From positions 22,300 through 86,299 of the forward strand of contig CAJUAO010000011.1 of the NCBI GenBank assembly GCA_910584685.1: a stretch of 64,000 nucleotides of DNA, in the 5' to 3' direction. This document shows positions 3,214-24,780 of the stretch, piece after piece. The notes below the pieces were generated by a model. That model saw only the letters and a list, made by a program, of their open reading frames with translations. It ran no database searches and was not told where the DNA came from. Origin of the DNA: an uncultured Lachnospiraceae bacterium (GTDB taxonomy: Bacteria > Bacillota > Clostridia > Lachnospirales > Lachnospiraceae). Within the stretch, counting starts at the first letter, position 1. Each line of letters opens with the position of its first letter. The position numbers and the translations under genes are program-made.

Positions 3214-6200
3214 TTATGCAGTATATTTATTTATAGTCTCATTTAAATATTGAATCTCTTTATCCATTGCCTGTATTTTTTTTATAAGTAATACTGTAAG
3301 TTTTGAATAGTCTATTGCCTCACAATTTCCATCTCTGTCGTGAGTAACTACATATGGATATATTTTTTCCATTTCTTCAGCTATTAAGCCATATTGATTT
3401 TTATAACCGATATTTGGCTTATAATCAAATGATACAGGTCTGATTTTAGAAAAATTATCAATAAAATCATCAGATAATGTTTTTATATTTTCCTTGTATC
3501 TTATAGATGAAGCATTGACAAATGACCTTGCACAGCAATCTCCTGTATAAGCATCCATATAGAAACAATTTTGAGAGTCAAAACCGTTTGAAGTGTGAGG
3601 TACAATATAAAATCGAGATTGCTCATCATATCGAAGATAAATTTTTCTGTCATAATTATTATGTAAAATTACATTTGAAGCATTATTGCTTGTAAGGACT
3701 TCAATATTTCCTTTACATTTAATATAATCTCCTATTGATAAATTACCTGTATTAGTAATTGAACTTGTTGTTATGTTATTAAAAACTCCATTTCCACTTG
3801 AATTAACATAATAGTTTCCATATGAACCAAATTGTATTGTTTCTTCAAACCTTATAGTACTTGTTACGCTGCTTGCAGATATATGAACAGCATAAACATT
3901 ATAAGTGAATAATGTATCAACTCCACCACTACCAACTTCCCAATATGAACTAATAAGATTTGCACCTAAATTTGTGTCATAATAGCTTGTATATATAAAC
4001 ATGGAATCATCTTTAGTTGGAACTTTTAGTCCTACATTCCATTTGACAGTTGAGGATTGGATATAGTTGCATTCAAGAGCTAAATTGTTTATATTCCATC
4101 CACCAATTTTACCTTTTTCAGCATTAATAGTACCTGATATATTAGCATTTTGTGAATATAGTTCCCCATTATTCTTTATGTAAGTTATATCATTACCCTC
4201 TTTATCCTTAACAAAAAATGCAACATTATTAGCATATTTAGAAGACTGTAACCCTATAATTCCCGCTTCTGTTTCTGTATACAAACACTGACCTAATCCA
4301 TATCCTGATGGTTTACCTATACTCCACTTACCAATAGTCCCACCAGTAGCAGTGATATTATCAGTAGAAATTGTCCCCGTAATATTTGCCCCTTTAGCAG
4401 TTAATATACCCTTCGTTATATTCGTATAAGCATCAGACGATGCATACTGCCTGATACCATTTGTCCCCAAATAAATACCGGCAGTTGTAGAAGTTAAGGA
4501 ACTTGTACCGTTATAAATCGAAGAACTTCCTATGGTAAATCCTCCAATGCTTCCGCTGGTAGCAGTAATCCTCCCCGAAACCTCCAACACATTACCCAAA
4601 GAATCATACCTAAGCCTCCCACCTGCAAAAGAAAAATCACCGCTATTCAAATCAATATGCGTCCCAGCAGGGGAAGCTCCGTCAGAAGAATAATTCCCAG
4701 AATAAACATTCCCCCCGACAATATCATTCCCCATCAAAATCCCCGACACAACAGCATCCGCAATAAGACCATACCGTGATACATTTTCCCTTAAAACAGG
4801 ATTATAAAACTCAATCCTCCCAAGAGCCGCCTTGGCAGTCTTCCAGTAATCATCAGTATAAACAAGACAGTTATTAGAAAATTTAACCTGTTCCGGCAGA
4901 TAACCACCGGAAATATCATCCCACTGTCTTCCCGTAATCCCATGCTCATCAATTACAAACTCCTGATTTATGCTGCTTGAAATATTATAAAGGGCAGCAT
5001 TTAACCCGTCATTTCTTATGGTATCAAGCTCCGTAAAGCCTTTTGCCCCCTGCTTAGCCTGATGAGCCACATAGCTGAAACTGGCAGCCATGGTTTTAAC
5101 ACTGTCCATAAGGCTTTTAGCGTCATTCAGTCCGTTATAGGTTTCAGTTACGTCAGAAAATTCCACCTCAATATTCTGTATCCGGGAAAAATCAATACAA
5201 TAATGAATTAACCTGAGCCTGTATATTTTATCATCCAGCTTAATCCTAATCCAGTTTCCACCCTCAAACATACCTGTCAGCTTCTTAAATTCAGGTATCG
5301 CCAAAAGGTTAAACATGGCTGCCGACAGGGACAACTGCAAGGTGGAAGCAGTAACGGCATCAAGCCTTGCCTTGTCAAGCAGTTCCTGCGCCTTTTCAAT
5401 TAATTCCTTGCTGTTTAAGCCGTCAGATATATAATTGCTGTTTTCAAAGGAATCCTCCCGTCTGAAAGAACACAATTCCCTCCATAATTCTTTTCCAAGG
5501 AAATTTTCAAGATTAAGGTAATCTGTTATTTCACCCTGCGCTTTTTCCAGTTCACATAACTTTTTATCAACAGCCTCAAGCTCAGATGCTCTCACCTTTA
5601 TTTCAGCCTGAATGGCAGTAAGCTTATTATAATAAGGCAGGTATAAATCATGATAAATATCTCCATAAATAGTATTATTTGCACAATTATTATCAATCAT
5701 GATGTCAATAACAGACTGATAAGCAGATTCAAAGGAATTAAGCCTGTTTAAGCAGTACTTCTTTAACTCTGCCTTAAAGACATTTAACTCCGTTTTAACG
5801 TCAAATATGTCAACTAAATAAATATCGTCCCTGTCAATTTTTTTTCTGATGCTCTGCTCAATCTGACAGGCATAGTCGTCATTAATTGTAAGGGTAACAT
5901 ACCCTGTATTTTCAGCAGTATCATTTTCATCACTGTAATTAGTCAGCCTGAACTTACCCTTCCATGTCTGGCTTACAAAGGAAGTACTGTCCTCAATAAG
6001 CTCAATTCTATATACAGTACTGTTTACAATACATTTTGCCATTCCAAGAACGGCATTATTAACCGTATAAACAGAAGCAATGCTTACATCCTGTACGGCA
6101 ACGGGATTCATGTTTGCCGCTGTTAATTTTGCCAGTTCCTTTTCAGCGTTGGTTTCAGCTGTTTCAATATCAGGCATCATGGCAGATTCCAACTGTAACT

Positions 6201-7212
6201 GCCTGTCAATGGTATCATATAATTCAGCCATGATACTTTGATAATCAGGGGTAAGCCTGTCATACTCCTTAAAATAATCCTCTAATTTTACACGCAGTTC
6301 CCCGGACATATCCTCCTTATCCCTGTCTGAAAAAGCGTATATATACTGTGTTCCTGTGGGATTACATGCGGAAATGGCAGCATTAATAATTTCATCTCCC
6401 CCTGAAACCTTAATATAGTTTTTAACCTCATCCTGTTTACTGGATAAAGAAATGCTTTCTGCCAGAGTTTCGGAATCAACGAAAATAGTAGTATCATTTC
6501 CATATCCGTAATTCAAATCCTTACTGCCGCATTCAGGACATATATCCGTATAGTCACCACGATAGCCGCAGTGGTTGCAGTTGGTTTTTAAATCATAAAC
6601 TGATATGCTCCTGTCTGTTGAATCAAACAGGAAAAGACAGCCGGTTTCCTCAGCAATTTCTCCTGTTAAGGCATCATATACGGTTGTACCGTCAATACTG
6701 AACATTCTCTGTATGCTCCACAGGGTAGCGTCCACATGCTTAATGGTGTAATTGGGAACTGCTTTAAGCAGCCTGTGAAGAAGGGATTCACTTGGATTTG
6801 AGGGCTTGTAAAATATGGTTGGATTTTTGTAATCATCTCTTGCAATATCATCTTCTGTGTTGATTTCTGTGGATTTAATATATATCTGGCTTAGCTCAGC
6901 TTCGCATAGGGAGGTTGCCGTTACCTCCTTTGAAACACCGTTTTTATCGTTTATTACAACATCAATCTGAAACCATTCGTTAAATTCCTTCAAATAAACA
7001 AGCCTTCTGTCCTTTATTTCTTCCCACAAGCGTTCCTTCTCATAATTAAGCTCCTTATAGACAGTGAAATTAATAGTATCAGCGGACATAAGGTTATAGT
7101 CGTATGTAAGATTATCAATGTTTACAATGGAGCCAAGCTTATCATAATTTCTTTTGCCGAGAATAATTTCCGGCATTTCAACGTTATTGTTTAAATCAAA
7201 CTCAAGGCGCAT
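3214..7212 (-). CDS. Tail-associated/tail fibre protein (Tal-like N-terminus, C-terminal S74 intramolecular chaperone domain)
   Basis: 1332 aa, directly after Dit. The N-terminus resembles the phage minor structural protein N-terminal region. G/S/T/N-rich repeats in the distal part. The last ~100 aa (SSIRYKENI...GLIAEEMEKIYPYVV...IDYSKLTVLLIKKIQ) match the peptidase S74 chaperone pattern. Confidence 0.85.
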   Translation of the reverse strand: MRLEFDLNNNVEMPEIILGKRNYDKLGSIVNIDNLTYDYNLMSADTINFTVYKELNYEKERLWEEIKDRRLVYLKEFNEWFQIDVVINDKNGVSKEVTATSLCEAELSQIYIKSTEINTEDDIARDDYKNPTIFYKPSNPSESLLHRLLKAVPNYTIKHVDATLWSIQRMFSIDGTTVYDALTGEIAEETGCLFLFDSTDRSISVYDLKTNCNHCGYRGDYTDICPECGSKDLNYGYGNDTTIFVDSETLAESISLSSKQDEVKNYIKVSGGDEIINAAISACNPTGTQYIYAFSDRDKEDMSGELRVKLEDYFKEYDRLTPDYQSIMAELYDTIDRQLQLESAMMPDIETAETNAEKELAKLTAANMNPVAVQDVSIASVYTVNNAVLGMAKCIVNSTVYRIELIEDSTSFVSQTWKGKFRLTNYSDENDTAENTGYVTLTINDDYACQIEQSIRKKIDRDDIYLVDIFDVKTELNVFKAELKKYCLNRLNSFESAYQSVIDIMIDNNCANNTIYGDIYHDLYLPYYNKLTAIQAEIKVRASELEAVDKKLCELEKAQGEITDYLNLENFLGKELWRELCSFRREDSFENSNYISDGLNSKELIEKAQELLDKARLDAVTASTLQLSLSAAMFNLLAIPEFKKLTGMFEGGNWIRIKLDDKIYRLRLIHYCIDFSRIQNIEVEFSDVTETYNGLNDAKSLMDSVKTMAASFSYVAHQAKQGAKGFTELDTIRNDGLNAALYNISSSINQEFVIDEHGITGRQWDDISGGYLPEQVKFSNNCLVYTDDYWKTAKAALGRIEFYNPVLRENVSRYGLIADAVVSGILMGNDIVGGNVYSGNYSSDGASPAGTHIDLNSGDFSFAGGRLRYDSLGNVLEVSGRITATSGSIGGFTIGSSSIYNGTSSLTSTTAGIYLGTNGIRQYASSDAYTNITKGILTAKGANITGTISTDNITATGGTIGKWSIGKPSGYGLGQCLYTETEAGIIGLQSSKYANNVAFFVKDKEGNDITYIKNNGELYSQNANISGTINAEKGKIGGWNINNLALECNYIQSSTVKWNVGLKVPTKDDSMFIYTSYYDTNLGANLISSYWEVGSGGVDTLFTYNVYAVHISASSVTSTIRFEETIQFGSYGNYYVNSSGNGVFNNITTSSITNTGNLSIGDYIKCKGNIEVLTSNNASNVILHNNYDRKIYLRYDEQSRFYIVPHTSNGFDSQNCFYMDAYTGDCCARSFVNASSIRYKENIKTLSDDFIDNFSKIRPVSFDYKPNIGYKNQYGLIAEEMEKIYPYVVTHDRDGNCEAIDYSKLTVLLIKKIQAMDKEIQYLNETINKYTA

Positions 7213-8225: not shown

Positions 8226-11200
8226 CTATCTTGTATGCCTGAGCTTATCCAAAGGAGTTCCTTTACCTGTTAATGCGTGGTTAATAGAAGTAAACACAGC
8301 TTTTTCAAATGTATTGTCTTTTATTAACTGATTTCTGAAACCTGAATAATCTGTTACGTTTGGAAGCTCAAGATTTACATTTATATCACCAACATTAACC
8401 TGTGAGGACTGACTGTTTGCCATACTGCCAAAATCCGGAACAGAAAAATTAAATGTCGGCTTTGGTATCGTAGCAGTAATACTCGCCGGGTCTATGTTAT
8501 ACTTCTTCATATAAGTTTCCGGATTCTGTGAAAGCTCCCACAGTCTCCTTGAGGACTCATTGTCAAACACCATATCACCGGAACTTAAAGGCGTAAGCAC
8601 TGCTCCGTCAGCGGTACGGTATATAATCTCCTCCCCGTCCTCCTGTGTCCAGTGATAACCCCTGGCTGCATTTGAAGTTCCTGACTTGTAGCCGTTTGAT
8701 TTAAGGTAATTTAACAGCTTGGTATTCTGTGAAGGGCTGCCTGTGTAAGCGCCGCCGAATATTTTACTCCAATACATGGCACGGGCAGAGAATGAGCTGT
8801 CCTTGTCATAGTATTTAAGCCTGTCTACAACACTTGTGTCTATATTTAATGAGTTTTTCGGATAGTAGTCCTTTTTGCTTATTAGTATACTGTCAAGCAA
8901 TGACTTGCCTGTTTTTGAAGTATTAGACGAAGATGATATAGAACTTGGATTAATTGGGTTTGAGTTTGATACAGGATTATTGATTGTATTTTTATTGCCG
9001 TTTCCTGTATTGGTATTTGGGGTATTAACAGCAGGATTAATTATAGGATTATAAGGATTAGTTGATGAGCCTGTGTTATGATTTCCATTGCTGTTGGCAG
9101 CAATATTTGAGCCTGCATTGGTTTTACTTTCATCTGCATTTACAAGATTTGCAACATGTGATACCAGATTATTTATAGCGGTTGTTGTTCCTGCAATAGA
9201 GGTGCTTACCCCGCCTAACCCGCTGTTAAGGGAATTTGATACATTGCTTAATCCGCCTTTTAATTCGCCTGTAAGAGATTGGGTGAAAGGACTGTCAGAG
9301 CTAAATATGGTGCTTAAGGAATCGCTGATAAATGTTCCATAGTATTCGCTTGTTTCCTTTAATGTAGTATTTATTGTATCGCCCTGTGATGATATCTGGC
9401 TTATTATCTGTGCTATCAGCTCGTCTGAATGGTCTAAACGCTCATTCATCCAATTCTCATAGTCTTCGGCTAACTGGTCAAGCATTGTTTCCGTGTCGCT
9501 TAAATACTGCTCGTATTCGCTTTCCTTTAAATCTGCCTTGGCTTCTTCAAGCTGTACACGTATCTGCTGGATTTTTGACATGGCTTCCTCGGAGGTATCG
9601 CCTTCATAAGCAAGCTTTTGCTTTTCAAGGGAGGAAATGTTGTCTGTCTTTTCAGCTATGCTCTTTTGATAGTCGTATAGGTTTTTTTCTGCATTAAGCT
9701 GTTCTTTTTTCTTGTCAATGAGCCTTTGTAATGCGTCTAACTGCGCATTGTAGCCGTCTTCTATAAGGTCTAGGATTGACTGTTTTTCATCCTCGGCGGC
9801 AAGAACGGCATCCTGATGGGCTTTAACCATTTCATTGTACTGGGCTAAAACTTCATCTCCTGCGCCGTTTATAAGCTGCTTTTGTAAGTCCTGAACTTCC
9901 TCGTAGTAATCCTGTGCCTGTTGTTTGTATACGTCATAAGCAGCGGCATGTAACGCCATGGAGGCAGTACCATAGTTGGTTATCTGTCCGTTTTCATCAA
10001 ATAGGTGTTTCTTTGACAGCAGCTCAACGTAATAATCTGTTTCTTCTGTAATACGGTTAAGGGATTCTTCTAAATACTCAAAGATTTCCCAGTTTAGGTC
10101 ACGTATGGTATTGTTGAAGTCAACGAGGTTGTTTGTCATGGAGTCAATTTCTTTATCTATGTCCATGAGGGTTGAGTACATGTCATTCCATTCGGCAGTT
10201 CCCTGCTTGTGCAGGGTGTTGTTTAGTATACTCTGTAGCTGTGTACGCTCGTTTTTAAGGGTGTCAAGATGTTTTTGAGTATACTCAATCATGCCGTTGT
10301 AGTAGCTTTCGTTGGCAAACTGTCCCTTTAATTCCAGCAGGTCGACTTTGTTTTGGATTGTCTGCAGAGCGTGCTCCAGGATGGAGGTGTCAAAGTCGAA
10401 GGCTTCCTTTAGATTGTCGAATTGGAGCTTGTCAATATTTTTTAATGCAGTTTCAGCATCTAAAATCTGACTGTCGAGGGTGTCAAGCTGTGATATAAGA
10501 TTATACCATTGTTCGGTATGCTGCTGTATATCAGAAGAATTGAGATTGTTTTGTAAAGCATTGCGTTGGGCTTGCAATTTGTTTACTATATCAGCCTGTT
10601 TGCTTCTGAGGGTATCATAGTTACCTGATGAGGAGAGAAGTGTTATCTGGTTTTCTAAAAGGTCGTATGCTGACTGCATACGGTTTATAACAGCGTCATA
10701 CTCTGATTTAATGTTGTCAAACTTTTGTGTGTTAAGCTGATTTAGCTCTGAATTTAAATCCTGCTGTGTTTTAAGACATTCCTGTGCTTTTTCATACCAG
10801 GTCTGATAATCACTGATTTTGTCTTTAATTATTTTGTCTTCAGGCGTTTCATCCAGAATAATGCCGATGTCAATGGCACCTTTTTGCACAAGTGTTTTAT
10901 ATGGTTCGGGTAATCCGACAGAGTCAGCTTTCTGCATATATCTTGTATATGCCTGTGACTGTAATTCTATGGCATCCTTTGTTTTGGATATGGCGTTTGC
11001 AAGCTCAGTATTGCGTTTTGTCCATGATGAATAGGTGTTGTTGGCTTTAGCTTTTATTGTGTCTAAGGCTTCATTTAGTCTCTTGATTTTTGTTTCTATC
11101 CAATCGTAGGTTTGGGAGGTGTCTTTGTCAGGGGATAAGGAAGAAGGGGATTTAGGAGTACCGGTATATGAAGCAAAATTTATCTTACTGCCAATAATGG

Positions 11201-13541
11201 CTTCATAATCCATGTTTAATAATAAATCCTGTAAATCAGATATTTTATTTTCTGCTGATGCAATCATGCCGCCATAAATTGCAACGGGATTAGTTAAATT
11301 TATTCCAATGCCGTTAGACCAATATCCTTTGTCATCATATTGCTGCTTGGCTTGTTTGTATTGTGACTTTGCTGTTTCAATATCATCATTTGCCTCAGAA
11401 ATTTTCCTTTGGATATCAAGCTTGGCATTTAAGTAATTTCCATAATTGGTTAGGTCTATATCATATGTTTTCTTTAAATTGTCTACCCAGCCTTTATTAT
11501 TCTCAATAAAACTATTCCACCATGTTTCACCATATATAGTTTCTTTATTAATATTATATTTTTCATAATTAAGCAGGTCATCTTTATATAGAGCACGTAA
11601 TGCTTTAACCATTTCTTCGGCATTACTTATTCCCATTGCTTCCATATTTTCTATAACAGTTTGTACTTCACTATTTGTCATAGAGTACAACCCTTTTAGG
11701 GTATCAGAAGAGCGAATATATTCAGTTACAATTTCATTAAATGCTGATTGAATTTCTTCGGTGGTTTTAGTTGGATTTCCTATGACAGACTCAAATAAAT
11801 CGTAACCATCTAAATCTGAAAGAATACTATCCCTTATGTTAAATAAAGTAGAAGATAGAACATATCCTTTATCCTGAAATTCTGTATAGGCTTCATTAAG
11901 GTTATTTATAGCAGAAGCAGCACTGGACAGAGATTCAACACCGTCAAGTAAATTCATAATATTAAGATAACAGGCTTCGGCAGATAATTTTGTATCTTTA
12001 AGCAGCTTAGAATATTCTGCCGTAGATGAAATTATTTCAGGGCTTAATTTTCCTGTTCTTGCTAATTCAAGAAGTTCCTTTTTTGCTTCTGCAAAGTCGG
12101 CTGCATTGAAGGCATCGTTGAAAGAAGTAATCAATTTTTCACTTTTTATTATTTTGTCTTCAAGTTTAAAAATCATATTATTAAAATATGCATCAAGTAT
12201 ATCAGATATTATAGGATAGCTATCTTTTAGTTTATTAAATACAGAAACCAAATTATTATAAACTATATCTTCATCATTATCTATATCATTTGTTAATTTA
12301 TCTAAATATTCACTCCATAAATCATTTATAACATCTGTATCAGAAAAAATCTCCTGTAATGATTTTGTGATTTCTTTACTGTCTGTAATACCACTCATAA
12401 ATAATCTGTCGATTATGCTGTTTATTTCCGTTGGGGTTAAGAAGCTGTTTAAATCATTAACAGTATCAGAAAACGCAGAATGTACATGGTCAAGTATATC
12501 CTCAAAACCGTTTTTGAGTTCCTCTTCAGAAGGAATCGATAGTTTAGATCCTTGAACACCATAACCACCATAATTATTAACCTTTTCCAATGCCTCTCTA
12601 TATATTTTTGCATACTCGTTTATAGTGCCTGAGAATTCACCCTTTTCTATAGCTTGGCCTATTAACTCATCTGCATATTCGCCAACTGTTTTAGAATAAT
12701 CAGTAGACCATTTTCCTTTTTTATACCATTTTTCTTTTTCATATTTATTATTCCATGTATAAAATTCTCTTATATTGTCAAAAGTCATATCAGAGCCAAA
12801 GCCACTGTTTTCAACTTCTGTATTAAGAGCAGTATTAAATTCCGCAGTGCTGCGTTTTTTTTCTGCTTCTTCAGCAGCTTTTTTCTGAAGTTCTATCTCA
12901 CGTTCTATTTGAAGATTTAAAATTTCATATGCATTTGACTGTTTAAGTATTTTGCTTGTTCCTGAGCCAAGTGTATCATTAAGCTCATCAGCCAATGAGT
13001 TCATTTTGGCTTGGCTGTATCTGGCGTCCTCAAGCTTTTCCTTCAGGTTTTCTAACGCCGTGATTTTAGATTCTGCTGTTGAAATGGTTTCTTCAGATTT
13101 GTCAATTATTTCCTGCTGTTTTTCCAGGTAACGTTCATTAGCAGAGGTAAGATATTGGATACCTTCAATTAGTTTAGATATAGCGATTGATATAGTTGTC
13201 ATTGCAAGCATGTTTCCGGCCGTAGAAAGACCTTTTAGTGCAATTTGACCTGCTTTTGATATCTTTGGAATTTGTTCTAAATTGACTGTTGCATCTCCTG
13301 CAGATTTTGCAATATTAGCAGCAGCAACAGATGCGTTTTGTAATGTTCTGTAATATGCCGTAGCGGGAGATGCTCCACGTTTTATTTCTGAATTATAAGC
13401 TTTCAGCGCATATATGTCACTGTTATTTAATACGCTTTTTTTCTTAAAAAAATCATTGTTCAAACTAAAAAAATTTTTTAATCCACTATTAATTGATAAT
13501 TTTGTATTTCCAAACTCATTAGTTATTGTTTTAAATATCAT
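8226..13541 (-). CDS. Tape measure protein, C-terminal part (putative exon 2)
   Basis: 1771-aa ORF, long coiled-coil-rich protein. Hydrophobic segments near its N-terminus continue the pattern of the upstream TP901-type core ORF. An in-frame TAA lies 6 nt upstream of the annotated ATG. No convincing RBS of its own. Confidence 0.8.
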   Translation of the reverse strand: MIFKTITNEFGNTKLSINSGLKNFFSLNNDFFKKKSVLNNSDIYALKAYNSEIKRGASPATAYYRTLQNASVAAANIAKSAGDATVNLEQIPKISKAGQIALKGLSTAGNMLAMTTISIAISKLIEGIQYLTSANERYLEKQQEIIDKSEETISTAESKITALENLKEKLEDARYSQAKMNSLADELNDTLGSGTSKILKQSNAYEILNLQIEREIELQKKAAEEAEKKRSTAEFNTALNTEVENSGFGSDMTFDNIREFYTWNNKYEKEKWYKKGKWSTDYSKTVGEYADELIGQAIEKGEFSGTINEYAKIYREALEKVNNYGGYGVQGSKLSIPSEEELKNGFEDILDHVHSAFSDTVNDLNSFLTPTEINSIIDRLFMSGITDSKEITKSLQEIFSDTDVINDLWSEYLDKLTNDIDNDEDIVYNNLVSVFNKLKDSYPIISDILDAYFNNMIFKLEDKIIKSEKLITSFNDAFNAADFAEAKKELLELARTGKLSPEIISSTAEYSKLLKDTKLSAEACYLNIMNLLDGVESLSSAASAINNLNEAYTEFQDKGYVLSSTLFNIRDSILSDLDGYDLFESVIGNPTKTTEEIQSAFNEIVTEYIRSSDTLKGLYSMTNSEVQTVIENMEAMGISNAEEMVKALRALYKDDLLNYEKYNINKETIYGETWWNSFIENNKGWVDNLKKTYDIDLTNYGNYLNAKLDIQRKISEANDDIETAKSQYKQAKQQYDDKGYWSNGIGINLTNPVAIYGGMIASAENKISDLQDLLLNMDYEAIIGSKINFASYTGTPKSPSSLSPDKDTSQTYDWIETKIKRLNEALDTIKAKANNTYSSWTKRNTELANAISKTKDAIELQSQAYTRYMQKADSVGLPEPYKTLVQKGAIDIGIILDETPEDKIIKDKISDYQTWYEKAQECLKTQQDLNSELNQLNTQKFDNIKSEYDAVINRMQSAYDLLENQITLLSSSGNYDTLRSKQADIVNKLQAQRNALQNNLNSSDIQQHTEQWYNLISQLDTLDSQILDAETALKNIDKLQFDNLKEAFDFDTSILEHALQTIQNKVDLLELKGQFANESYYNGMIEYTQKHLDTLKNERTQLQSILNNTLHKQGTAEWNDMYSTLMDIDKEIDSMTNNLVDFNNTIRDLNWEIFEYLEESLNRITEETDYYVELLSKKHLFDENGQITNYGTASMALHAAAYDVYKQQAQDYYEEVQDLQKQLINGAGDEVLAQYNEMVKAHQDAVLAAEDEKQSILDLIEDGYNAQLDALQRLIDKKKEQLNAEKNLYDYQKSIAEKTDNISSLEKQKLAYEGDTSEEAMSKIQQIRVQLEEAKADLKESEYEQYLSDTETMLDQLAEDYENWMNERLDHSDELIAQIISQISSQGDTINTTLKETSEYYGTFISDSLSTIFSSDSPFTQSLTGELKGGLSNVSNSLNSGLGGVSTSIAGTTTAINNLVSHVANLVNADESKTNAGSNIAANSNGNHNTGSSTNPYNPIINPAVNTPNTNTGNGNKNTINNPVSNSNPINPSSISSSSNTSKTGKSLLDSILISKKDYYPKNSLNIDTSVVDRLKYYDKDSSFSARAMYWSKIFGGAYTGSPSQNTKLLNYLKSNGYKSGTSNAARGYHWTQEDGEEIIYRTADGAVLTPLSSGDMVFDNESSRRLWELSQNPETYMKKYNIDPASITATIPKPTFNFSVPDFGSMANSQSSQVNVGDINVNLELPNVTDYSGFRNQLIKDNTFEKAVFTSINHALTGKGTPLDKLRHTR

Positions 13542-13554
13542 ACTATGTTATAAT
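13526..13554 (+). promoter_or_regulatory. Putative sigmaA promoter for the antisense zinc-ribbon gene
   Basis: -35 TTGTTT (13526-13531), 17-nt spacer, TG-extended -10 TGtTATAAT (13546-13554). It overlaps the start of TMP exon 2 on the opposite strand. Confidence 0.45.
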
Positions 13555-13618
13555 ATATAAATAAATACATATAAAGATATAATGTGGAGTTATATCTTTT
13601 TTATTTAAGGAGGATTTT

Positions 13619-13942
13619 ATGCAAATATATCAATGTCCTAATTGTGGAAGAACTTTTTCAGAGTTTGCAAATATATATTATTGTCCTGTTTGTAATTATA
13701 GACTTGTCAAACAGGAAGATATTAAAGAAATAAAACATCCTGAGCTGTCAGACCGTGATGAACATATTATTGGGGAATTGCCTGACCCAACGAAACCAAA
13801 TGTAGCTTGTCCCTATTGCACATCGTCAAATATTAAAAAAATTAGTAGCAGTAGTCGTTGGCTATCTATAGGCATGTTAGGCATATTCAGTAATAAGATA
13901 GGAAAAAATTTTCACTGTAATAATTGTGGAGCAAATTTTTAA
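13619..13942 (+). CDS. Double zinc-ribbon small protein (107 aa), antisense inside the TMP intervening sequence
   Basis: AAGGAGG RBS 7 nt before the ATG. Two CxxC...CxxC pairs (CPNC..CPVC and CPYC..CNNC) with a short hydrophobic stretch in the second ribbon. Confidence 0.7.
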   Translation: MQIYQCPNCGRTFSEFANIYYCPVCNYRLVKQEDIKEIKHPELSDRDEHIIGELPDPTKPNVACPYCTSSNIKKISSSSRWLSIGMLGIFSNKIGKNFHCNNCGANF

Positions 13943-14149
13943 ACACATTACAGAAATTTGCTTAATACTTTTTTAGTAAGAAGATTTTAAAAATATGTAT
14001 AGTTTATATGTTCAAATATGGGATACAAATAAAGTTTTAAGAAAACTTACCAGAGAAGTATTAAGCAATTTCGTTGTAATAACTGTAATTTGAATTTTTA
14101 AGTATAATAATTTGAGTTGAATAATCTTATATTTTATTTTTCTCCGTTT

Positions 14150-14650
14150 CTTCCACTATACGGCTAGGAGAATTCCTTGCATTATTTCATTTTTTGCTAT
14201 AAATAAATATAGCTGCTATAAAAAATAAAAGAGCAGCAGAACTCCTGATAGTTTTTACTCAGTCACGAGACAGTCTATCAACTGCGTTTCGAATCCCTCT
14301 TACAAGCCATTAATGACTCAAAATCGTTTAGACTCTGTGAACACTTCCATATCTGAATAATCAGACTTAGGGTATCCGTTGCTGATTGGAGGTTTAGTTC
14401 ATTTGAACCTTCACTTAGGCTTTCGCCATATGACTAATCACATTCGTATTTATATACGCTTTTGACTTTTCTTGCCATTACTGGCATCCTTTCGGAGTGC
14501 ATTCATACTTTACCGTTTCCGGTTATGTATTGTAGTGTGTGATTACTATATATTCTCTATAATTTTGCTTTCCAGCACTGGTATATAGCAAATACCAATT
14601 ACGATTTATTTTATAGAACATTGTAAGTTGACTAAGCTTACACATTCCTG
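14150..14650 (-). ncRNA. Group I intron ribozyme core
   Basis: Minus-strand RNA 14372-14319 reads CCCUAAGUC-UGAUUAUUCA-GAUAUGGAAGUGUUCACAGAGUCUAAACGAUUUUG. This is very close to the textbook Tetrahymena core CCUAAGUC-hairpin-GAUAUGGAUGCAGUUCACAGACUAAAUG. P3 pairing is CAAAAGCGU (14464-14456) with ACGAUUUUG (14327-14319). There are three GAAA-tetraloop hairpins. Confidence 0.85.
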
Positions 14651-14651
14651 C

Positions 14652-14711
14652 CTTTGAAATGTATGTTTATATAATTGTATACTTTGAAATGTATGTTTAT
14701 ATAATTGTATA
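14652..14711. repeat. Perfect 30-bp tandem duplication
   Basis: CTTTGAAATGTATGTTTATATAATTGTATA occurs at 14652-14681 and again at 14682-14711, just 3' (on the minus strand) of the stop of the TMP N-terminal ORF. Confidence 0.95.
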
Positions 14712-14717
14712 GCTTTC

Positions 14718-16049
14718 TTAGGCATGAAGGGCATATTCAAAACAATTTTTTGAAATCCGTACACTCATACGGCGTTTACCAATGTTCTTTATTCCTGAAA
14801 ACAATCCTGCGCCAAGTCCAATAGTACCTGCCGAACCAATAGAGCCGGTTACTTTATCAATAACTCCAACCACCCCGTTTAAGCTATTTATTATTTTTAT
14901 AAATGCATCAGAGTCTGCAATATTTCCAATGGTTTTTGTAAAGGTGTTGCTTAAGCGCTGAAGGCTTCCTTCCCACGAATTTGCTGTTTTTTCCACGTCA
15001 GCAGCCATTGAGCCGGCGCCGGAGTTATAATCCCTAAGCATTTCCTCATATAAAGAGTAATTTTCAAGAATAGCGTTAAGAGCGTCGGCTCTGTCCCCGC
15101 CGCCGACAGAATTAAGAAGATTAGCCCGTCTTGAGTCGCTTTCCTCAAGCCTTGTATACTTCTCTGATAATTCTTCTAAAATTTCCATCGGCTCCTTAAG
15201 AGAAACAACGCCATTCTTTACGGTTGACAAAGAAACGCCTAACTCATTACAGGCTTCTTCATATTTCGTCAGGGAGCTTTCATCAATAAAGTCGCCCCCG
15301 TCATTTGCGTCTCCTGTTATCTGCCGCAGATTCATTAAAATACCGTTAAAGGAATTTCCAATTTCTGCTCCGCCTTTTTTTGTAACGGAAAGTAATGTTC
15401 CAACAGCAGCAGTAGTTTCATCTATATCCATCTGAGAATCGGAAGCCCTTGAGCTTACAACAGACATAGCCTCAGCAAGCTCTGTCATATCAATGGAATG
15501 TCTGTTTGTAATATTGTTTGCGCCATCTAAAGCGGCGGTTAATGACTGTATGGAGCCGTTCATTTTATAGGCATTGTCAGCGGCCCTAATATATTCGTTT
15601 GCCAAATCAGAAGTAATACCTCCGGCAGACTGAATAGCTGTCGATAATTCGGCAATTTGTTCAGCGTTTTTATATCCTGCATCAGCTGCTGATTTAAATT
15701 CAGACAGGTAATCTAATGCCGTTTTGCCATATTTGCCGGCAATGGTAAAGGCATTATTTTTTACGTTTTCTAATTGTGATTTAGACAGGGAGCTGTTAGA
15801 TTTGCTTATTTCTGTTAATAAGGTATTAACATCCTTTAATTGTGATACGGCTTCCTTTGTCTTTTCAACAACGCCTGATACGGCATTACTTAAGGAAAAA
15901 AAATCTGTAATAATTTTACCGGCCTCTTTGAACTGGTCTTTTATAGCGTTGCCAAGCTTATCCAGGTAGTGCTGCTGTGAATCAATTTCCTTTAAATTAT
16001 TTTGCGTTGATTTGGATTGAGCGTCAGTTTGTTCATTATTATTTGCCAA
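14718..16049 (-). CDS. Tape measure protein, N-terminal part (putative exon 1; last ~15-20 codons probably intron-derived read-through)
   Basis: 443 aa with TTG start and AAAGGA RBS. The TIAGKYGKTALDYLSEFKSAADAGY... region resembles the TP901-family TMP core. It ends in a G/A/L-rich hydrophobic segment and then unrelated residues. Confidence 0.8.
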   Translation of the reverse strand: MANNNEQTDAQSKSTQNNLKEIDSQQHYLDKLGNAIKDQFKEAGKIITDFFSLSNAVSGVVEKTKEAVSQLKDVNTLLTEISKSNSSLSKSQLENVKNNAFTIAGKYGKTALDYLSEFKSAADAGYKNAEQIAELSTAIQSAGGITSDLANEYIRAADNAYKMNGSIQSLTAALDGANNITNRHSIDMTELAEAMSVVSSRASDSQMDIDETTAAVGTLLSVTKKGGAEIGNSFNGILMNLRQITGDANDGGDFIDESSLTKYEEACNELGVSLSTVKNGVVSLKEPMEILEELSEKYTRLEESDSRRANLLNSVGGGDRADALNAILENYSLYEEMLRDYNSGAGSMAADVEKTANSWEGSLQRLSNTFTKTIGNIADSDAFIKIINSLNGVVGVIDKVTGSIGSAGTIGLGAGLFSGIKNIGKRRMSVRISKNCFEYALHA

Positions 16050-22008: not shown

Positions 22009-24780
22009 CTAGTTTTTATGTGACCTCCAATATTCCCGCTTAATGCGTTTATTTTCCTCATGCTGGCACAGGCTGCATCTGCACGCTTTAGAGTTTAGAG
22101 CGTCAACCTCAAGCCATTCCCCACAGTCAATACATTTAATTACCTTAGTTTTCTTAGGAGTATAGTTTTGTTTTAAATTTTCAACAATATACTTACCATA
22201 GCAAAACCATAGCAATTCCTTAGCCCTTCTGTTTTTCTGCCCATAAAGATGCTTAACCAGCATATCGGTTGTTTCTGTATCAGAATATCCAAAGACAGAC
22301 AGCTCGTCTCTTATCCGACAGGCAAGAAAGTGCAAATTATTATGAAATTCATCCTTCATTGAAATTTTAAAATGATATGTATTATTAAGCTCTTTATATC
22401 TTTCAATGAGTCTTTCATCTGTTTTTATATTTGCATTGCGCATAAGATATCTATAGTCTATAGGCTTTAAGCCTGATTTTCTTGTGTTAAGCCGGGGGTT
22501 AGGAATTAAGGAGTCCAGCTTGTTGACAATGCTGTCATTTATTTTTTCAACCTGCGTCTCCTCCTTATCCTTGGCATATACAAAGAAATGAGGAACCTTT
22601 TTTCCCGTAAATTCTTTTATTGCTTTGTCAATATTGTCCGGTCTTTCAGGCTTGTACAGAGTTTTTGCAAAATCAATGCAGAAGTTGTTTTCCATACATA
22701 AAAGCTTTACAATATCGCATGCCTTACTTTTATCATCATGGGAGCCTGTAATAAAAATATCGGAATTCCATATTTTTGTAATGTTATTGCTATATGTTCC
22801 TATATTACTTCCCGTAAAGGCTGCATTTAAGCCCTTATATATGTTTGCATTATTTAACATGGCAGGCTCTGATTTCTTCATATTATAATACAGGGGAACA
22901 ACCTCCTTCATTTCTCTTTTGCCAATATCCACTATTATTTTGCTGCCGATAACAAGAGAACGGTCGCCGTCAACGTCAAACTGAAGTATTTTGCTGATTA
23001 GGTCGTGGCAGCTTGTATAAAGCGCCTGCGTATTAAACCATTCTGAAATCATTTTCTTTCTCTCATCAGATGATATGTTTGCCGCGTTTTCCCTTATGGC
23101 ATGCTCCTTGTATAAATGGGGAGAGCGAAGGCAGTCAAGCTCCTTACGATGCTTGTACAGGCTGCACCAAACCTCAGATTTACTTAACAGACCTTCAGGG
23201 CTTTTAATTCCTAAAAACCAGTACTCACAGGCGGCGTAGAAATCAGGCAGTATAAAGGTGTATTTTCCCTCTGTTTCAAGCTTTGCGGATTTATACTGCT
23301 TTACAAGACTATCCTTTATGCTTTTAAGTATATCCTTAAAGTAAGGGTCATTCATAATATCAGGATATATTTTTACAGCCTCCTGAAGGGGAGTCATATT
23401 TGTATTGTATGGCGTAACGCCAAATACCTTCTGCATTCCGGAAACAGAGGAACAGAGGCTGTTCAGTCTGTCTATGGAGGGCGCTGCAATTTTTGCTAAT
23501 TCCAAATCAGTCATTCCGGTTAAGGTCTGCAATTCCTGATAGTTAAGTCTTGAATTAGGTATCCTTTCCTCCTCCACATTACAAATACCTGCCTTACAGC
23601 CATAGGATTTAAAATATTCCTTGTATTCCTCCCATGAAGAATAATATTTATACATCTTAAACTGACTTTTAGTGAAAATAATATAAATATTTTCCTTGAT
23701 AATATCATGCTCCCTGCCATAAATATCCTTAAGTGTGCCAATAGTATTGTCATGATATTTTTCACGCCATTTAAGAATAAGCTTTCTAAAATCGAATACT
23801 CCTAACAGTCCCTTGAGCCATGGAGCGCGAAACATCCTGTTTCTTCCGAATAAGACCATACCTGCTCCGTCAGTGTGGGTAATGGGAATCTCGCCCTTAG
23901 TTCTGACGATTGAATAGTCGGTATCGTCTATAAAATCATATTCGCCAAATACATTTGTCTCAAAATCATCAATGACAATAGTTCTGTCTATGTCAAAATC
24001 AGACCATTCGTCAGTGGCAGAATTGGCAAGGGCCATATATGCAAGATGCTTGTTTACGTTGTTGCCTCCTTTTTCATTGATTTTGTCAATGGTAAGACCA
24101 CACATAATAGTTTTTTCGTATCTGTCCCACAGCGTTTCCCTGATAAAGACGGCTTTTTTTTCACGAATCTGACCTGCCGACGAGGTATAATACCTGTATT
24201 TTTCACCCTTGTATGTAAAGCCGTAAAAGACAAGGTCCTTAAAAATATCAAAGTAATATACCTGTACAACAATAATATCCTCTGTAAAATCATTCATTTT
24301 TAGTCCAATCATTCTGGTTAATGAGGATTCGAAAAGTGAGATTACGTTTTTTTCTGATATAGTATTTTCATTTAGTTTTCTTGGCGGATAAATACAATCA
24401 TTATCCTTATTAATACGGCAAGCTTCTTTAGCCTTAATCTTATTAGACAACAGAAGCGCCAGTTTGTTTTTTAAGGCGTCTGCCGCCTTAGTCTTTAATT
24501 TTTTTATTCGTGAAAGCTCAATGTAAAAGCATAATTTGGAATAGCTGCCGTCAATTATTTTTATGGAAAGCATATCAGGGTTTTCATGGGCTGCCTTTTG
24601 CAAATCCTTACAGGAATATCCTGCTTTTGTAAGCTGTGCAGTCAGGACTTTGATTTTTTCTGCCACATTTTTAAGCTCACTCCTGATTTTTGCGTTCTTA
24701 TTATGTAATGCTCTTTCCTTATTTGTATAAAAATTTCCTGTATCAACAGAATAAATATTAATCTGATTTTCCAACGCCAT
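22009..24780 (-). CDS. YonO-like single-subunit two-barrel RNA polymerase with C-terminal zinc ribbon
   Basis: 923 aa with AGGAGGAA RBS. RSPHLY (aa 552-557, nt 23110-23127) and QFDVDGD (aa 602-606, nt 22963-22977) match the R.P.LH...DxDGD catalytic barrel of beta-prime/RdRP/YonO. TDGAG and RAPWLKG lie at aa 303-323. C-terminal CIDC...CRCSLC. Confidence 0.7.
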   Translation of the reverse strand: MALENQINIYSVDTGNFYTNKERALHNKNAKIRSELKNVAEKIKVLTAQLTKAGYSCKDLQKAAHENPDMLSIKIIDGSYSKLCFYIELSRIKKLKTKAADALKNKLALLLSNKIKAKEACRINKDNDCIYPPRKLNENTISEKNVISLFESSLTRMIGLKMNDFTEDIIVVQVYYFDIFKDLVFYGFTYKGEKYRYYTSSAGQIREKKAVFIRETLWDRYEKTIMCGLTIDKINEKGGNNVNKHLAYMALANSATDEWSDFDIDRTIVIDDFETNVFGEYDFIDDTDYSIVRTKGEIPITHTDGAGMVLFGRNRMFRAPWLKGLLGVFDFRKLILKWREKYHDNTIGTLKDIYGREHDIIKENIYIIFTKSQFKMYKYYSSWEEYKEYFKSYGCKAGICNVEEERIPNSRLNYQELQTLTGMTDLELAKIAAPSIDRLNSLCSSVSGMQKVFGVTPYNTNMTPLQEAVKIYPDIMNDPYFKDILKSIKDSLVKQYKSAKLETEGKYTFILPDFYAACEYWFLGIKSPEGLLSKSEVWCSLYKHRKELDCLRSPHLYKEHAIRENAANISSDERKKMISEWFNTQALYTSCHDLISKILQFDVDGDRSLVIGSKIIVDIGKREMKEVVPLYYNMKKSEPAMLNNANIYKGLNAAFTGSNIGTYSNNITKIWNSDIFITGSHDDKSKACDIVKLLCMENNFCIDFAKTLYKPERPDNIDKAIKEFTGKKVPHFFVYAKDKEETQVEKINDSIVNKLDSLIPNPRLNTRKSGLKPIDYRYLMRNANIKTDERLIERYKELNNTYHFKISMKDEFHNNLHFLACRIRDELSVFGYSDTETTDMLVKHLYGQKNRRAKELLWFCYGKYIVENLKQNYTPKKTKVIKCIDCGEWLEVDALNSKACRCSLCQHEENKRIKREYWRSHKN

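Follow-up and report, generated by a model that had tools for sequence, protein, structure and literature searches.

Does the tape measure protein (TMP) gene of a prophage in an uncultured Lachnospiraceae bacterium really consist of two genes, or is it one gene with an insertion that is removed from its message? We addressed this question in a stretch of 64,000 nucleotides (nt) from this bacterium (GenBank assembly GCA_910584685.1, contig CAJUAO010000011.1, positions 22,300 to 86,299), referred to as the window, whose first letter is position 1 in all coordinates given here. Two open reading frames (ORFs) lie on its minus strand, ORF1 (14718-16049, 443 amino acids (aa)) and ORF2 (8226-13541, 1771 aa), and the ORF listing contains no long sense ORF in the gap of about 1.2 kb that separates them. 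A preliminary description made from the sequence had reported this arrangement with coordinates that agree with ours, had recognized a TP901-type TMP core in ORF1, which matches PF10145 with 53.7 bits (cutoff 33.2), and had proposed that a group I intron splits the gene. We consider it highly probable, judging from the sequences of the window and its relatives, that the TMP gene is a single gene split by a 1239-nt group I intron (13539-14777, minus strand), which carries an antisense passenger gene in its 3' part. The assignment to group I agrees with the earlier proposal and is based on a guide strand with adjacent P10 and P1 pairings, a U.G pair at the 5' splice site, a G that precedes exon 2 and a covarying pseudoknot of P3, P7 and P8.

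Predicted splice sites and internal guide sequence

The 5' region of the insert contains one guide strand that is complementary to both exon ends, in the order 5'-AUUGUUUUGAAUAU-GCC-two hairpins-AAUGUUCU-3'. The P10 strand AUUGUUUUGAAUAU (14733-14746, minus strand) forms 14 contiguous pairs with the start of exon 2, AUAUUUAAAACAAU (13538-13525). It is followed by the P1a strand GCC (14730-14732, minus strand), which pairs with the last three nucleotides of exon 1, GGU (14780-14778), and places U14778 opposite G14732 at the 5' splice site, and by the P1b strand AAUGUUCU (14615-14622, minus strand), which pairs with AGAACAUU of exon 1 (14788-14781). In total, the last 11 nt of exon 1 and the first 14 nt of exon 2 are paired with the guide strands. 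The succession of a P10 strand and a P1 strand is the canonical order of a group I guide sequence. Two hairpins interrupt the P1 strand in the intron lineage of the window, termed type A, and the CCGUAU/GUACGG stem that had been put forward as P1 turned out to be a hairpin inside the P1 loop. Four of the eight P1b pairs are compensatory, and their changes track the wobble of an exon codon (Ile, Thr, Val or Ala), while the P10 pairing is maintained through G.U changes in relatives.

These pairings define the exon ends. Exon 1 (14778-16049, minus strand) comprises 424 codons, includes the PF10145 match and ends with ...AAC AUU GGU (KNIG), its last nucleotide being U14778; the called ORF1 consists of this exon and 19 codons of the intron, reaching 14718. 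Exon 2 (8226-13538, minus strand) starts at A13538 with AUA UUU AAA (IFK...) and comprises 1770 codons and the stop codon. The preceding nucleotide, G13539 (minus strand), is the last of the intron and the putative omega-G; it is the G of the ATG called as the ORF2 start and a better placement than the omega-G at 13543 considered earlier. The in-frame TAA that had been pointed out at 13548-13550 is present. The join ...AAC AUU GGU/AUA UUU AAA... (KNIG/IFKTIT) is in frame and gives a protein of 424 + 1770 = 2194 aa. The predicted spliced junction reads ...AACAUUGGU/AUAUUUAAAAC..., and the 40-mer GGAATAAAGAACATTGGTATATTTAAAACAATAACTAATG represents the junction 14778/13538. When the in-silico spliced protein was compared with an uninterrupted TMP homologue (locus L021; relatives are designated by L numbers), as the preliminary description had recommended, both were collinear through the junction in a single high-scoring segment pair (E = 7e-43).

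The same rule was found in relatives. Exon 2 was located by open-frame and complementarity searches, because tblastn with the N-terminus of exon 2, a region that diverges fast, missed most loci. The scan for P1 and P10 did not require a G before exon 2 and was limited to candidates no more than 150 nt into the open frame, because an unconstrained scan gave false positives within the long ORF2. At 22 Lachnospiraceae loci, which represent at least four diverged intron lineages, the U.G pair and the G before exon 2 were recovered (background G 12%). At the start of the downstream frame, the stretch that best complements the intron 5' region is that of the P10 pairing, which is in frame, adjoins P1 and is preceded by a G, both in the window and in relatives with divergent exons. 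Its length is 14 bp in the window and 5-21 bp in relatives with other exon sequences, and it lies next to P1. Read as its reverse complement, the motif GUUUUGAAUAU gives the ORF2 start past the first codon (AUAUUYARAAC), with G.U changes that preserve the pairing, and directly after it comes the strand that complements the exon 1 end; in a second, compact lineage, type B, this pairing is GUCGGU/GCCGAC, in which the last U faces G. All type-A sequences (14 of 14) and all type-B sequences (12 of 12) have the U.G pair at the 5' splice site. In a third lineage, type C, exon 1 ends in KNFA and the guide matches its own exon sequences (UUGCU/GGCRA with U.G, and a P10 of about 20 bp), and a fourth (L033, L034, L047, L053) follows the same guide rule. 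Two loci of one subtype (L024 and L070) have GGC in place of GGU at the end of exon 1 and an A in the guide where the others have G, so that C.A replaces U.G. In the Tetrahymena ribozyme, a C.A pair is known to substitute functionally for the U.G wobble.

Fold and covariation of the putative intron RNA

The type-A RNA of about 640 nt could be aligned well across 15 sequences. With the pseudoknot included, pairing holds in 97.4% of the cells, and compensatory changes occur at 57 of 118 pairs, compared to 11-18 compensatory pairs in register-shifted structures; none of 500 shuffles reached the observed values. The G+C content climbs from about 0.2 to 0.36-0.40 across the structured part (14150-14520), and the conserved RNA stops near 14141, which agrees with the ribozyme end previously estimated near 14150.

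From 5' to 3' on the minus strand, the P1a strand is followed by the P2 hairpin (14645-14728), in which five of eight pairs covary and the loop is variable. In the window this loop contains a tandemly duplicated 30-nt unit (14652-14716; 2.1 copies that match at 97%), of which L001, which is 94% identical to the window, has one copy. The 5' strand of P3, AAAUCGU (14601-14607), pairs with ACGAUUU (14327-14321) in seven pairs, two of them compensatory, with a double compensatory change in L009. The partner assigned to P3 in the preliminary description, CAAAAGCGU (14464-14456), sits instead in an optional hairpin (14466-14445) that is missing in 10 of 15 relatives. This hairpin belongs to an expanded peripheral and P4-P6-like region (14389-14599) with several covarying hairpins, among them a receptor-like UAUGG/CCUAAG hairpin (14433-14411) and the three GAAA tetraloop hairpins already noticed before (~14523-14512, 14496-14487 and ~14427-14418). 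The stretch 14372-14319, which had been quoted for its resemblance to a textbook catalytic core, matched exactly. A P6-like hairpin, CUAAGUCUGA...UCAGAUAUGG (14347-14370), contains the 11-nt tetraloop-receptor motif (CCUAAG/UAUGG) and has nine pairs, of which four are compensatory.

The catalytic core (14290-14337, minus strand) consists of the P7 5' strand, J7/3, the P3 3' strand ACGAUUU, P8, J8/7 with the sequence UAAGAG, and the P7 3' strand. P7 is formed by C(A)GAGUCU (14337-14330) and GGAUUCG (14296-14290), with four compensatory changes in seven pairs; the GAGUC/GAUUC stem that had been read as P8-like is part of it. The pair flanking the bulged A changes from C-G to G-C in three sequences, while G14335-C14291 is invariant in 15 of 15 type-A sequences and the G-C pair in 27 of 27 sequences of types A and B. 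In P8, 98.9% of cells pair, with one-sided changes only. The P9 hairpin (14270-14285, minus strand; three of four pairs compensatory) comes next, and the former P7' candidate at 14277-14264 is the 3' half of this hairpin. Further 3' peripheral helices (14141-14245, minus strand) extend to the end of the conserved RNA at 14141. The P7.1/P7.2 (or P3.1/P3.2) insert of subgroup IA is not present, as only 2-5 nt lie between the P7 5' and P3 3' strands (AA in the window).

The 12 compact type-B sequences show the order P1-P2-P2.1-P3-P4-P6-P7-P3'-P8-P7'-P9. Here, 98% of cells are paired and 35 of 63 pairs are compensatory, including three of four in P3 and six of eight in P8; P6 covaries as well, and P4 is an invariant UGCGG/CCGCA. 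Several candidate helices were discarded in the course of the modelling. A first P7 candidate, CAC(A)GAG/CUCGUG, was abandoned as other pairings carry the covariation, and in place of a distal P4 (AUUGG/CCAAU) a local hairpin covaries. In an alternative type-B P7 register from RNAalifold, position 299 varies freely like a bulge, and helix 453-461/585-593 of the type-A alignment was excluded as it lacks covariation.

The pairings suggest the following course of events. In the late transcript, the single guide strand would hold both exon ends, with GCC and AAUGUUCU pairing with the end of exon 1 to form the U.G wobble at the 5' splice site and the 5' part of the guide pairing with the first 14 nt of exon 2. 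The P3/P7/P8 pseudoknot, with its bulged A beside the invariant G-C pair, would provide the guanosine site, and G13539 would act as omega-G. Two transesterifications, presumably autocatalytic, would then link ...AAC AUU GGU to AUA UUU AAA... to give the message for the 2194-aa TMP. The unusually long P10 probably returns the distant 3' splice site to the core. The 600 nt from the ribozyme to the 3' splice site would form a separate transcription unit on the opposite strand, which has its own putative -10 element and ribosome-binding site and would encode a small double zinc-ribbon protein. We propose that this gene is tolerated inside the TMP gene because splicing would remove it from the TMP message.

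Several observations weigh against a group I intron at this site. A cmscan of the whole window against Rfam matched no family at the gathering score, and the check that had been suggested, RF00028 (Intron_gpI) on the minus strand, gave no match: even at E <= 10 there was none in 13300-15000, in four relatives or in a natural 353-nt cargo-free version, and the Rfam matches at that level were chance microRNA (miRNA) and small RNA (sRNA) families only. The control introns, from a region of a T4-like phage, scored 35.6 bits (nrdB) and 18.9 bits (td) and did not reach the 50-bit cutoff either, which indicates that the RF00028 gathering threshold misses proven phage introns; the total absence of a signal nevertheless counts somewhat against simple membership in this family. 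In addition, the contiguous P1 pairing at the splice site is only 3 bp long, P4 and J4/5 (P4, P5) could not be assigned in the enlarged type-A RNA, where the 3' strand is invariant, and the near-fixation of the intron (about 95% of a large TMP clade) is unusual for a mobile group I intron. Among 50,697 phage records, blastn found nothing that matches the insert, and tblastn with the junction against phages gave two weak matches.

The short P1, the unassigned P4-P5 and the size of the type-A RNA also fit a variant of this reading, in which the intron no longer splices itself efficiently and either needs a host or phage protein cofactor or is inactive in a decaying prophage. A need for protein help in vivo is widespread among natural group I introns. 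However, across sequences of different species (15 of type A and 12 of type B) the core is invariant or covarying, which points to selection on the fold, and both exon frames are long and open, next to intact tail genes. We regard the loss of efficient self-splicing as unlikely.

An antisense zinc-ribbon gene in the 3' part of the putative intron

About half of the insert is not ribozyme, as had been stated in the preliminary description, and is occupied by an antisense gene that codes for neither a homing endonuclease nor a transposase. The gene (13619-13942, plus strand) encodes a protein of 107 aa with an N-terminal zinc ribbon and a C-terminal domain of the form CPYC...hydrophobic...HCNNC. 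A candidate extended -10 element read from the sequence, TGTTATAAT (13546-13554, plus strand), is situated within the intron at a distance of 7 nt from the 3' splice site, another TATAAT occupies 13578-13583, and an AGGAGG ribosome-binding site is located ahead of the ATG at 13619 on the plus strand. The simple promoter and terminator scan did not list this candidate promoter and returned nothing useful for the antisense gene. Around the putative cargo promoters, a TTGTGGA/TGTGGAG motif occurs one to three times at many loci (for example L012, L019, L024, L067 and L053; ~13583-13589 in the window), which could be an operator or promoter element.

The C-terminal domain is conserved in intron types A, B and C. 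Most of 19 introns with mapped ends contain an antisense ORF ending in CPYCxSxNxKKIS...hydrophobic...KxWHCNxCxSDF, and a profile of the domain matched 41 of the 64 loci with enough sequence, always antisense. Paralogues may stand in tandem within one intron, with three copies in L008 and L071 and two in L020, L024, L031, L047, L052 and L053. Other introns differ in their cargo: L001 has a gene for a 100-aa membrane protein instead, and a polytopic membrane protein, a lipoprotein and, on the sense strand, a choline-binding-repeat protein were found elsewhere. On the viral contig L006 (10000-11844), a type-A ribozyme is followed by sense ORFs of about 60 and 200 aa without an antisense zinc-ribbon gene in the 2.4 kb covered, a span that ends before exon 2.

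The domain is also common as stand-alone proteins of 48-100 aa. In L080-L082 (6001-6162), a stand-alone domain of 53 aa is encoded beside a divergent helix-turn-helix (HTH) repressor-like gene; this homologue belongs to a small integrated element that also encodes a resolvase and an integrase and is located after tsf. In L083-L085, which have another TMP family (an 845-aa PhageMin_Tail ORF and a 1991-aa ORF), the antisense zinc-ribbon gene is likewise present in the gap between the two, which suggests a related intron in another phage lineage.

Searches of Pfam, PHROGs and PADLOC with the cargo protein gave sub-threshold zinc-ribbon matches only. None of the homing endonuclease types LAGLIDADG, GIY-YIG, HNH, His-Cys box and PD-(D/E)xK was found above threshold in the intron ORF, and neither the window nor the 19 surveyed introns contain an ORF or domain of an IS200/IS605 transposase (IS, insertion sequence). 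An AlphaFold2 model of medium confidence (pLDDT 70) shows two zinc ribbons and, with low confidence, a helix at residues 77-84; Foldseek matched the model to generic zinc ribbons and rubredoxins only (E > 0.3). The order of motifs resembles that of LITAF domains (CxxC, about 12-20 hydrophobic aa, HxCxxC), with a weak match to PF10601 (E = 0.16-0.45).

The association with the intron is strong: 41 of 64 loci have the domain, which occurs in introns of types A, B and C and of other types as well as in a second split-TMP family, always antisense and in up to three copies. This raises the question of whether the protein serves the intron itself, as a new homing or mobility protein, a maturase or a splicing regulator. 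Zinc ribbons often bind nucleic acids, and the comparison with PHROGs showed a weak resemblance to an HNH family (E = 0.0011). On the other hand, no nuclease or maturase family was matched above threshold in Pfam, PHROGs or PADLOC, the structural model resembles generic zinc ribbons and rubredoxins, and the domain exists independently of introns, for example beside the repressor-like HTH gene in the small integrated element. Moreover, introns without cargo or with a different cargo occur, and the association is explained by common descent of intron and cargo. A function as an intron-associated factor is decidedly unlikely in our view.

A different and still tentative idea, which we regard as possible but hold at clearly less than even confidence, is that the intron is kept throughout the clade as an insulated docking site, which would allow accessory genes expressed in lysogeny to reside antisense inside an essential late gene. 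The membrane-associated zinc-ribbon family, the lipoproteins and the other membrane proteins would be examples of such cargo, and antisense transcription could gate TMP splicing. If this is true, antisense transcription that starts at or near the 3' splice site would tie tail production to the state of the prophage between lysogeny and lysis.

Probably one tape measure gene in most relatives

A composite query across the junction found 192 proteins. Among the 120 matches listed, nearly all have 390-480 aa and cover the ORF1 half, few cover the ORF2 half, and none spans the junction. Three homologues with 94%, 62% and 58% identity have the same layout as the window, with a TMP-core ORF, a gap of 1.0-1.3 kb that contains a small antisense ORF, and a giant ORF. 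In a scan with one genome per species, which gave 73 Lachnospiraceae loci, about 69 are broken, with ORF1 stopping at most 82 codons from KN[IV]G save in L021, L055, L063 and the masked L068. The uninterrupted TMPs of L021, L055 and L063 have more than 1440 codons open beyond the site. Inserts without cargo are only 353 nt (L057) and 420 nt (L061) long, an ordinary size for group I introns.

The break at the same residue in nearly all relatives and the lack of a junction-spanning protein among the matches listed would also be expected if TMP-N (443 aa) and TMP-C (1771 aa, AUG at 13541) were two real genes and the RNA between them had a regulatory or structural role. The pairing of the ORF1 tail with the ORF2 start could in principle be a device for translational coupling, the triplet before exon 2 is AUG, GUG or UUG at most loci, and Rfam recognizes no RNA. 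The preliminary description had named such a pair of genes, broken at one residue and with a functional ribosome-binding site for the second, as an outcome that would speak against an intron; the first part was indeed observed, but the second was not. There is no Shine-Dalgarno sequence upstream of ORF2, and the start triplet is replaced by ACG in L039, L057 and L053 and by a Thr or Lys codon in other homologues, leaving the final G as its sole conserved feature. In addition, protein conservation in 36 homologues halts at the Gly of KN[IV]G, and the ORF1 tails beyond it fall into unrelated classes. The nucleotide motif GUUUUGAAUAUGCC past this Gly is common to relatives and stands in differing reading frames, which shows that the sequence is conserved there as RNA and not as protein. 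The flanking exons covary with the guide sequence. Together with the missing Shine-Dalgarno sequence and the non-start triplets, this covariation argues that the breakage is a fixed intron and not a boundary between two genes. In view of the group I pseudoknot topology of the RNA and the collinearity of uninterrupted relatives with the spliced product, we consider the existence of two separate genes very improbable.

Genomic context of the putative intron

With its PF10145 core, its spliced length and its position among tail genes, the product has the features of a TMP. The gene order is two small chaperone-like ORFs, the TMP gene, a DUF6558 tail protein gene and a tail fibre gene; the tail fibre of 1332 aa, encoded downstream of the TMP gene (3217-7212, minus strand), has a C-terminal Peptidase_S74 intramolecular chaperone domain. 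An ORF of 923 aa (22012-24780, minus strand) matches the Pfam family RdRP (PF05183; 30.9 bits, cutoff 23.8). Its product may be a single-subunit RNA polymerase of the YonO type, which transcribes the late genes of SPbeta-like phages; in that case, the TMP gene with its intron would be transcribed by this enzyme. The prophage is an SPbeta-like Lachnospiraceae prophage.

Comparison with known introns and accessory genes

Tetrahymena and T4 provide the classical references. The intron of the Tetrahymena large subunit (LSU) rRNA (subgroup IC1) has a P6 with the receptor motif, CCUAAGUC...GAUAUGG, a P7/J7/3 segment UUCACAGA...UAAA, a bulged A before the P7 G-C pair, a UGCGGG/CCGCA P4, and P2 together with P2.1. 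The P6 receptor, the P7/J7/3 segment, the bulged A and P2/P2.1 are shared by the introns described here, as is P4 in type B. In contrast to the Tetrahymena intron, they reside in another host gene and another kingdom, and in type A, P1 is split and further peripheral domains are present. The T4 introns belong to subgroup IA2, and their ORFs are sense-strand homing endonuclease genes. Like the self-splicing introns of T4 td, nrdB and nrdD (sunY), the RNA core is split off by a long ORF-bearing insert, the exons are annotated as separate genes by gene callers, and RF00028 scores are poor. Unlike in T4, the ORF in the window is antisense, has a candidate promoter of its own and does not encode an endonuclease.

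The IStrons of Clostridioides difficile likewise combine a 5' group I ribozyme with a non-ribozyme cargo ahead of the 3' splice site. Their cargo is a sense-strand transposase module of the IS200/IS605 type, whereas the intron in the window has no transposase domain. The cargo gene shares properties with prophage morons and accessory genes expressed in lysogeny, as it is small, has a candidate promoter of its own, runs against the late operon and varies among close relatives, and its homologues adjoin repressor-like genes. Morons are normally intergenic, whereas the cargo gene lies inside an essential gene, where it would be harmless only by means of RNA splicing.

The preliminary description knew of no intron-split TMP gene, but group I introns in TMP genes of Bacillus cereus-group prophages were described in 2008 (TMP-IVS1, IVS2 and IVS3; three sites, subclasses IA1/IA2; Tourasse and Kolsto 2008, PMC2504315). 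In both cases, the introns interrupt the TMP gene of temperate Firmicutes phages, some of them lack a complete homing endonuclease gene, and different introns at one site share a near-identical internal guide sequence, P1 and P10 (PMC2504315). The B. cereus-group introns occur sporadically, alongside intron-less alleles (PMC2504315), whereas the Lachnospiraceae intron is found in about 95% of the clade, has no P7.1/P7.2, has a P10 of 12-21 bp and contains the conserved antisense non-endonuclease gene in its 3' part. We found no literature on a Lachnospiraceae TMP intron family or on antisense cargo in phage introns. While prophage TMP group I introns as such were already known, the Lachnospiraceae intron is a diverged non-IA lineage that is invisible to Rfam. 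Its near-fixation in the clade, the very long P10 pairings and the conserved antisense non-endonuclease gene look new.

Implications for Lachnospiraceae prophages

At present, hundreds of gut Lachnospiraceae prophages have their TMP divided into two proteins by gene callers, and Rfam flags no RNA at these loci. A model built from our alignments would fix many annotations and extend the known group I introns by a diverged lineage. A sporadic occurrence and a homing endonuclease are usual for mobile introns, whereas the Lachnospiraceae intron is nearly fixed, free of endonucleases and almost always accompanied by a conserved gene on the opposite strand. This suggests that the intron is kept for what it permits, namely an independently expressed gene hidden in an essential one. 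The locus provides a concrete system for asking whether antisense transcription controls self-splicing. The zinc-ribbon family is widespread and uncharacterised, and, in view of its fixed link to the TMP gene, it is a candidate factor in the control of superinfection or injection.

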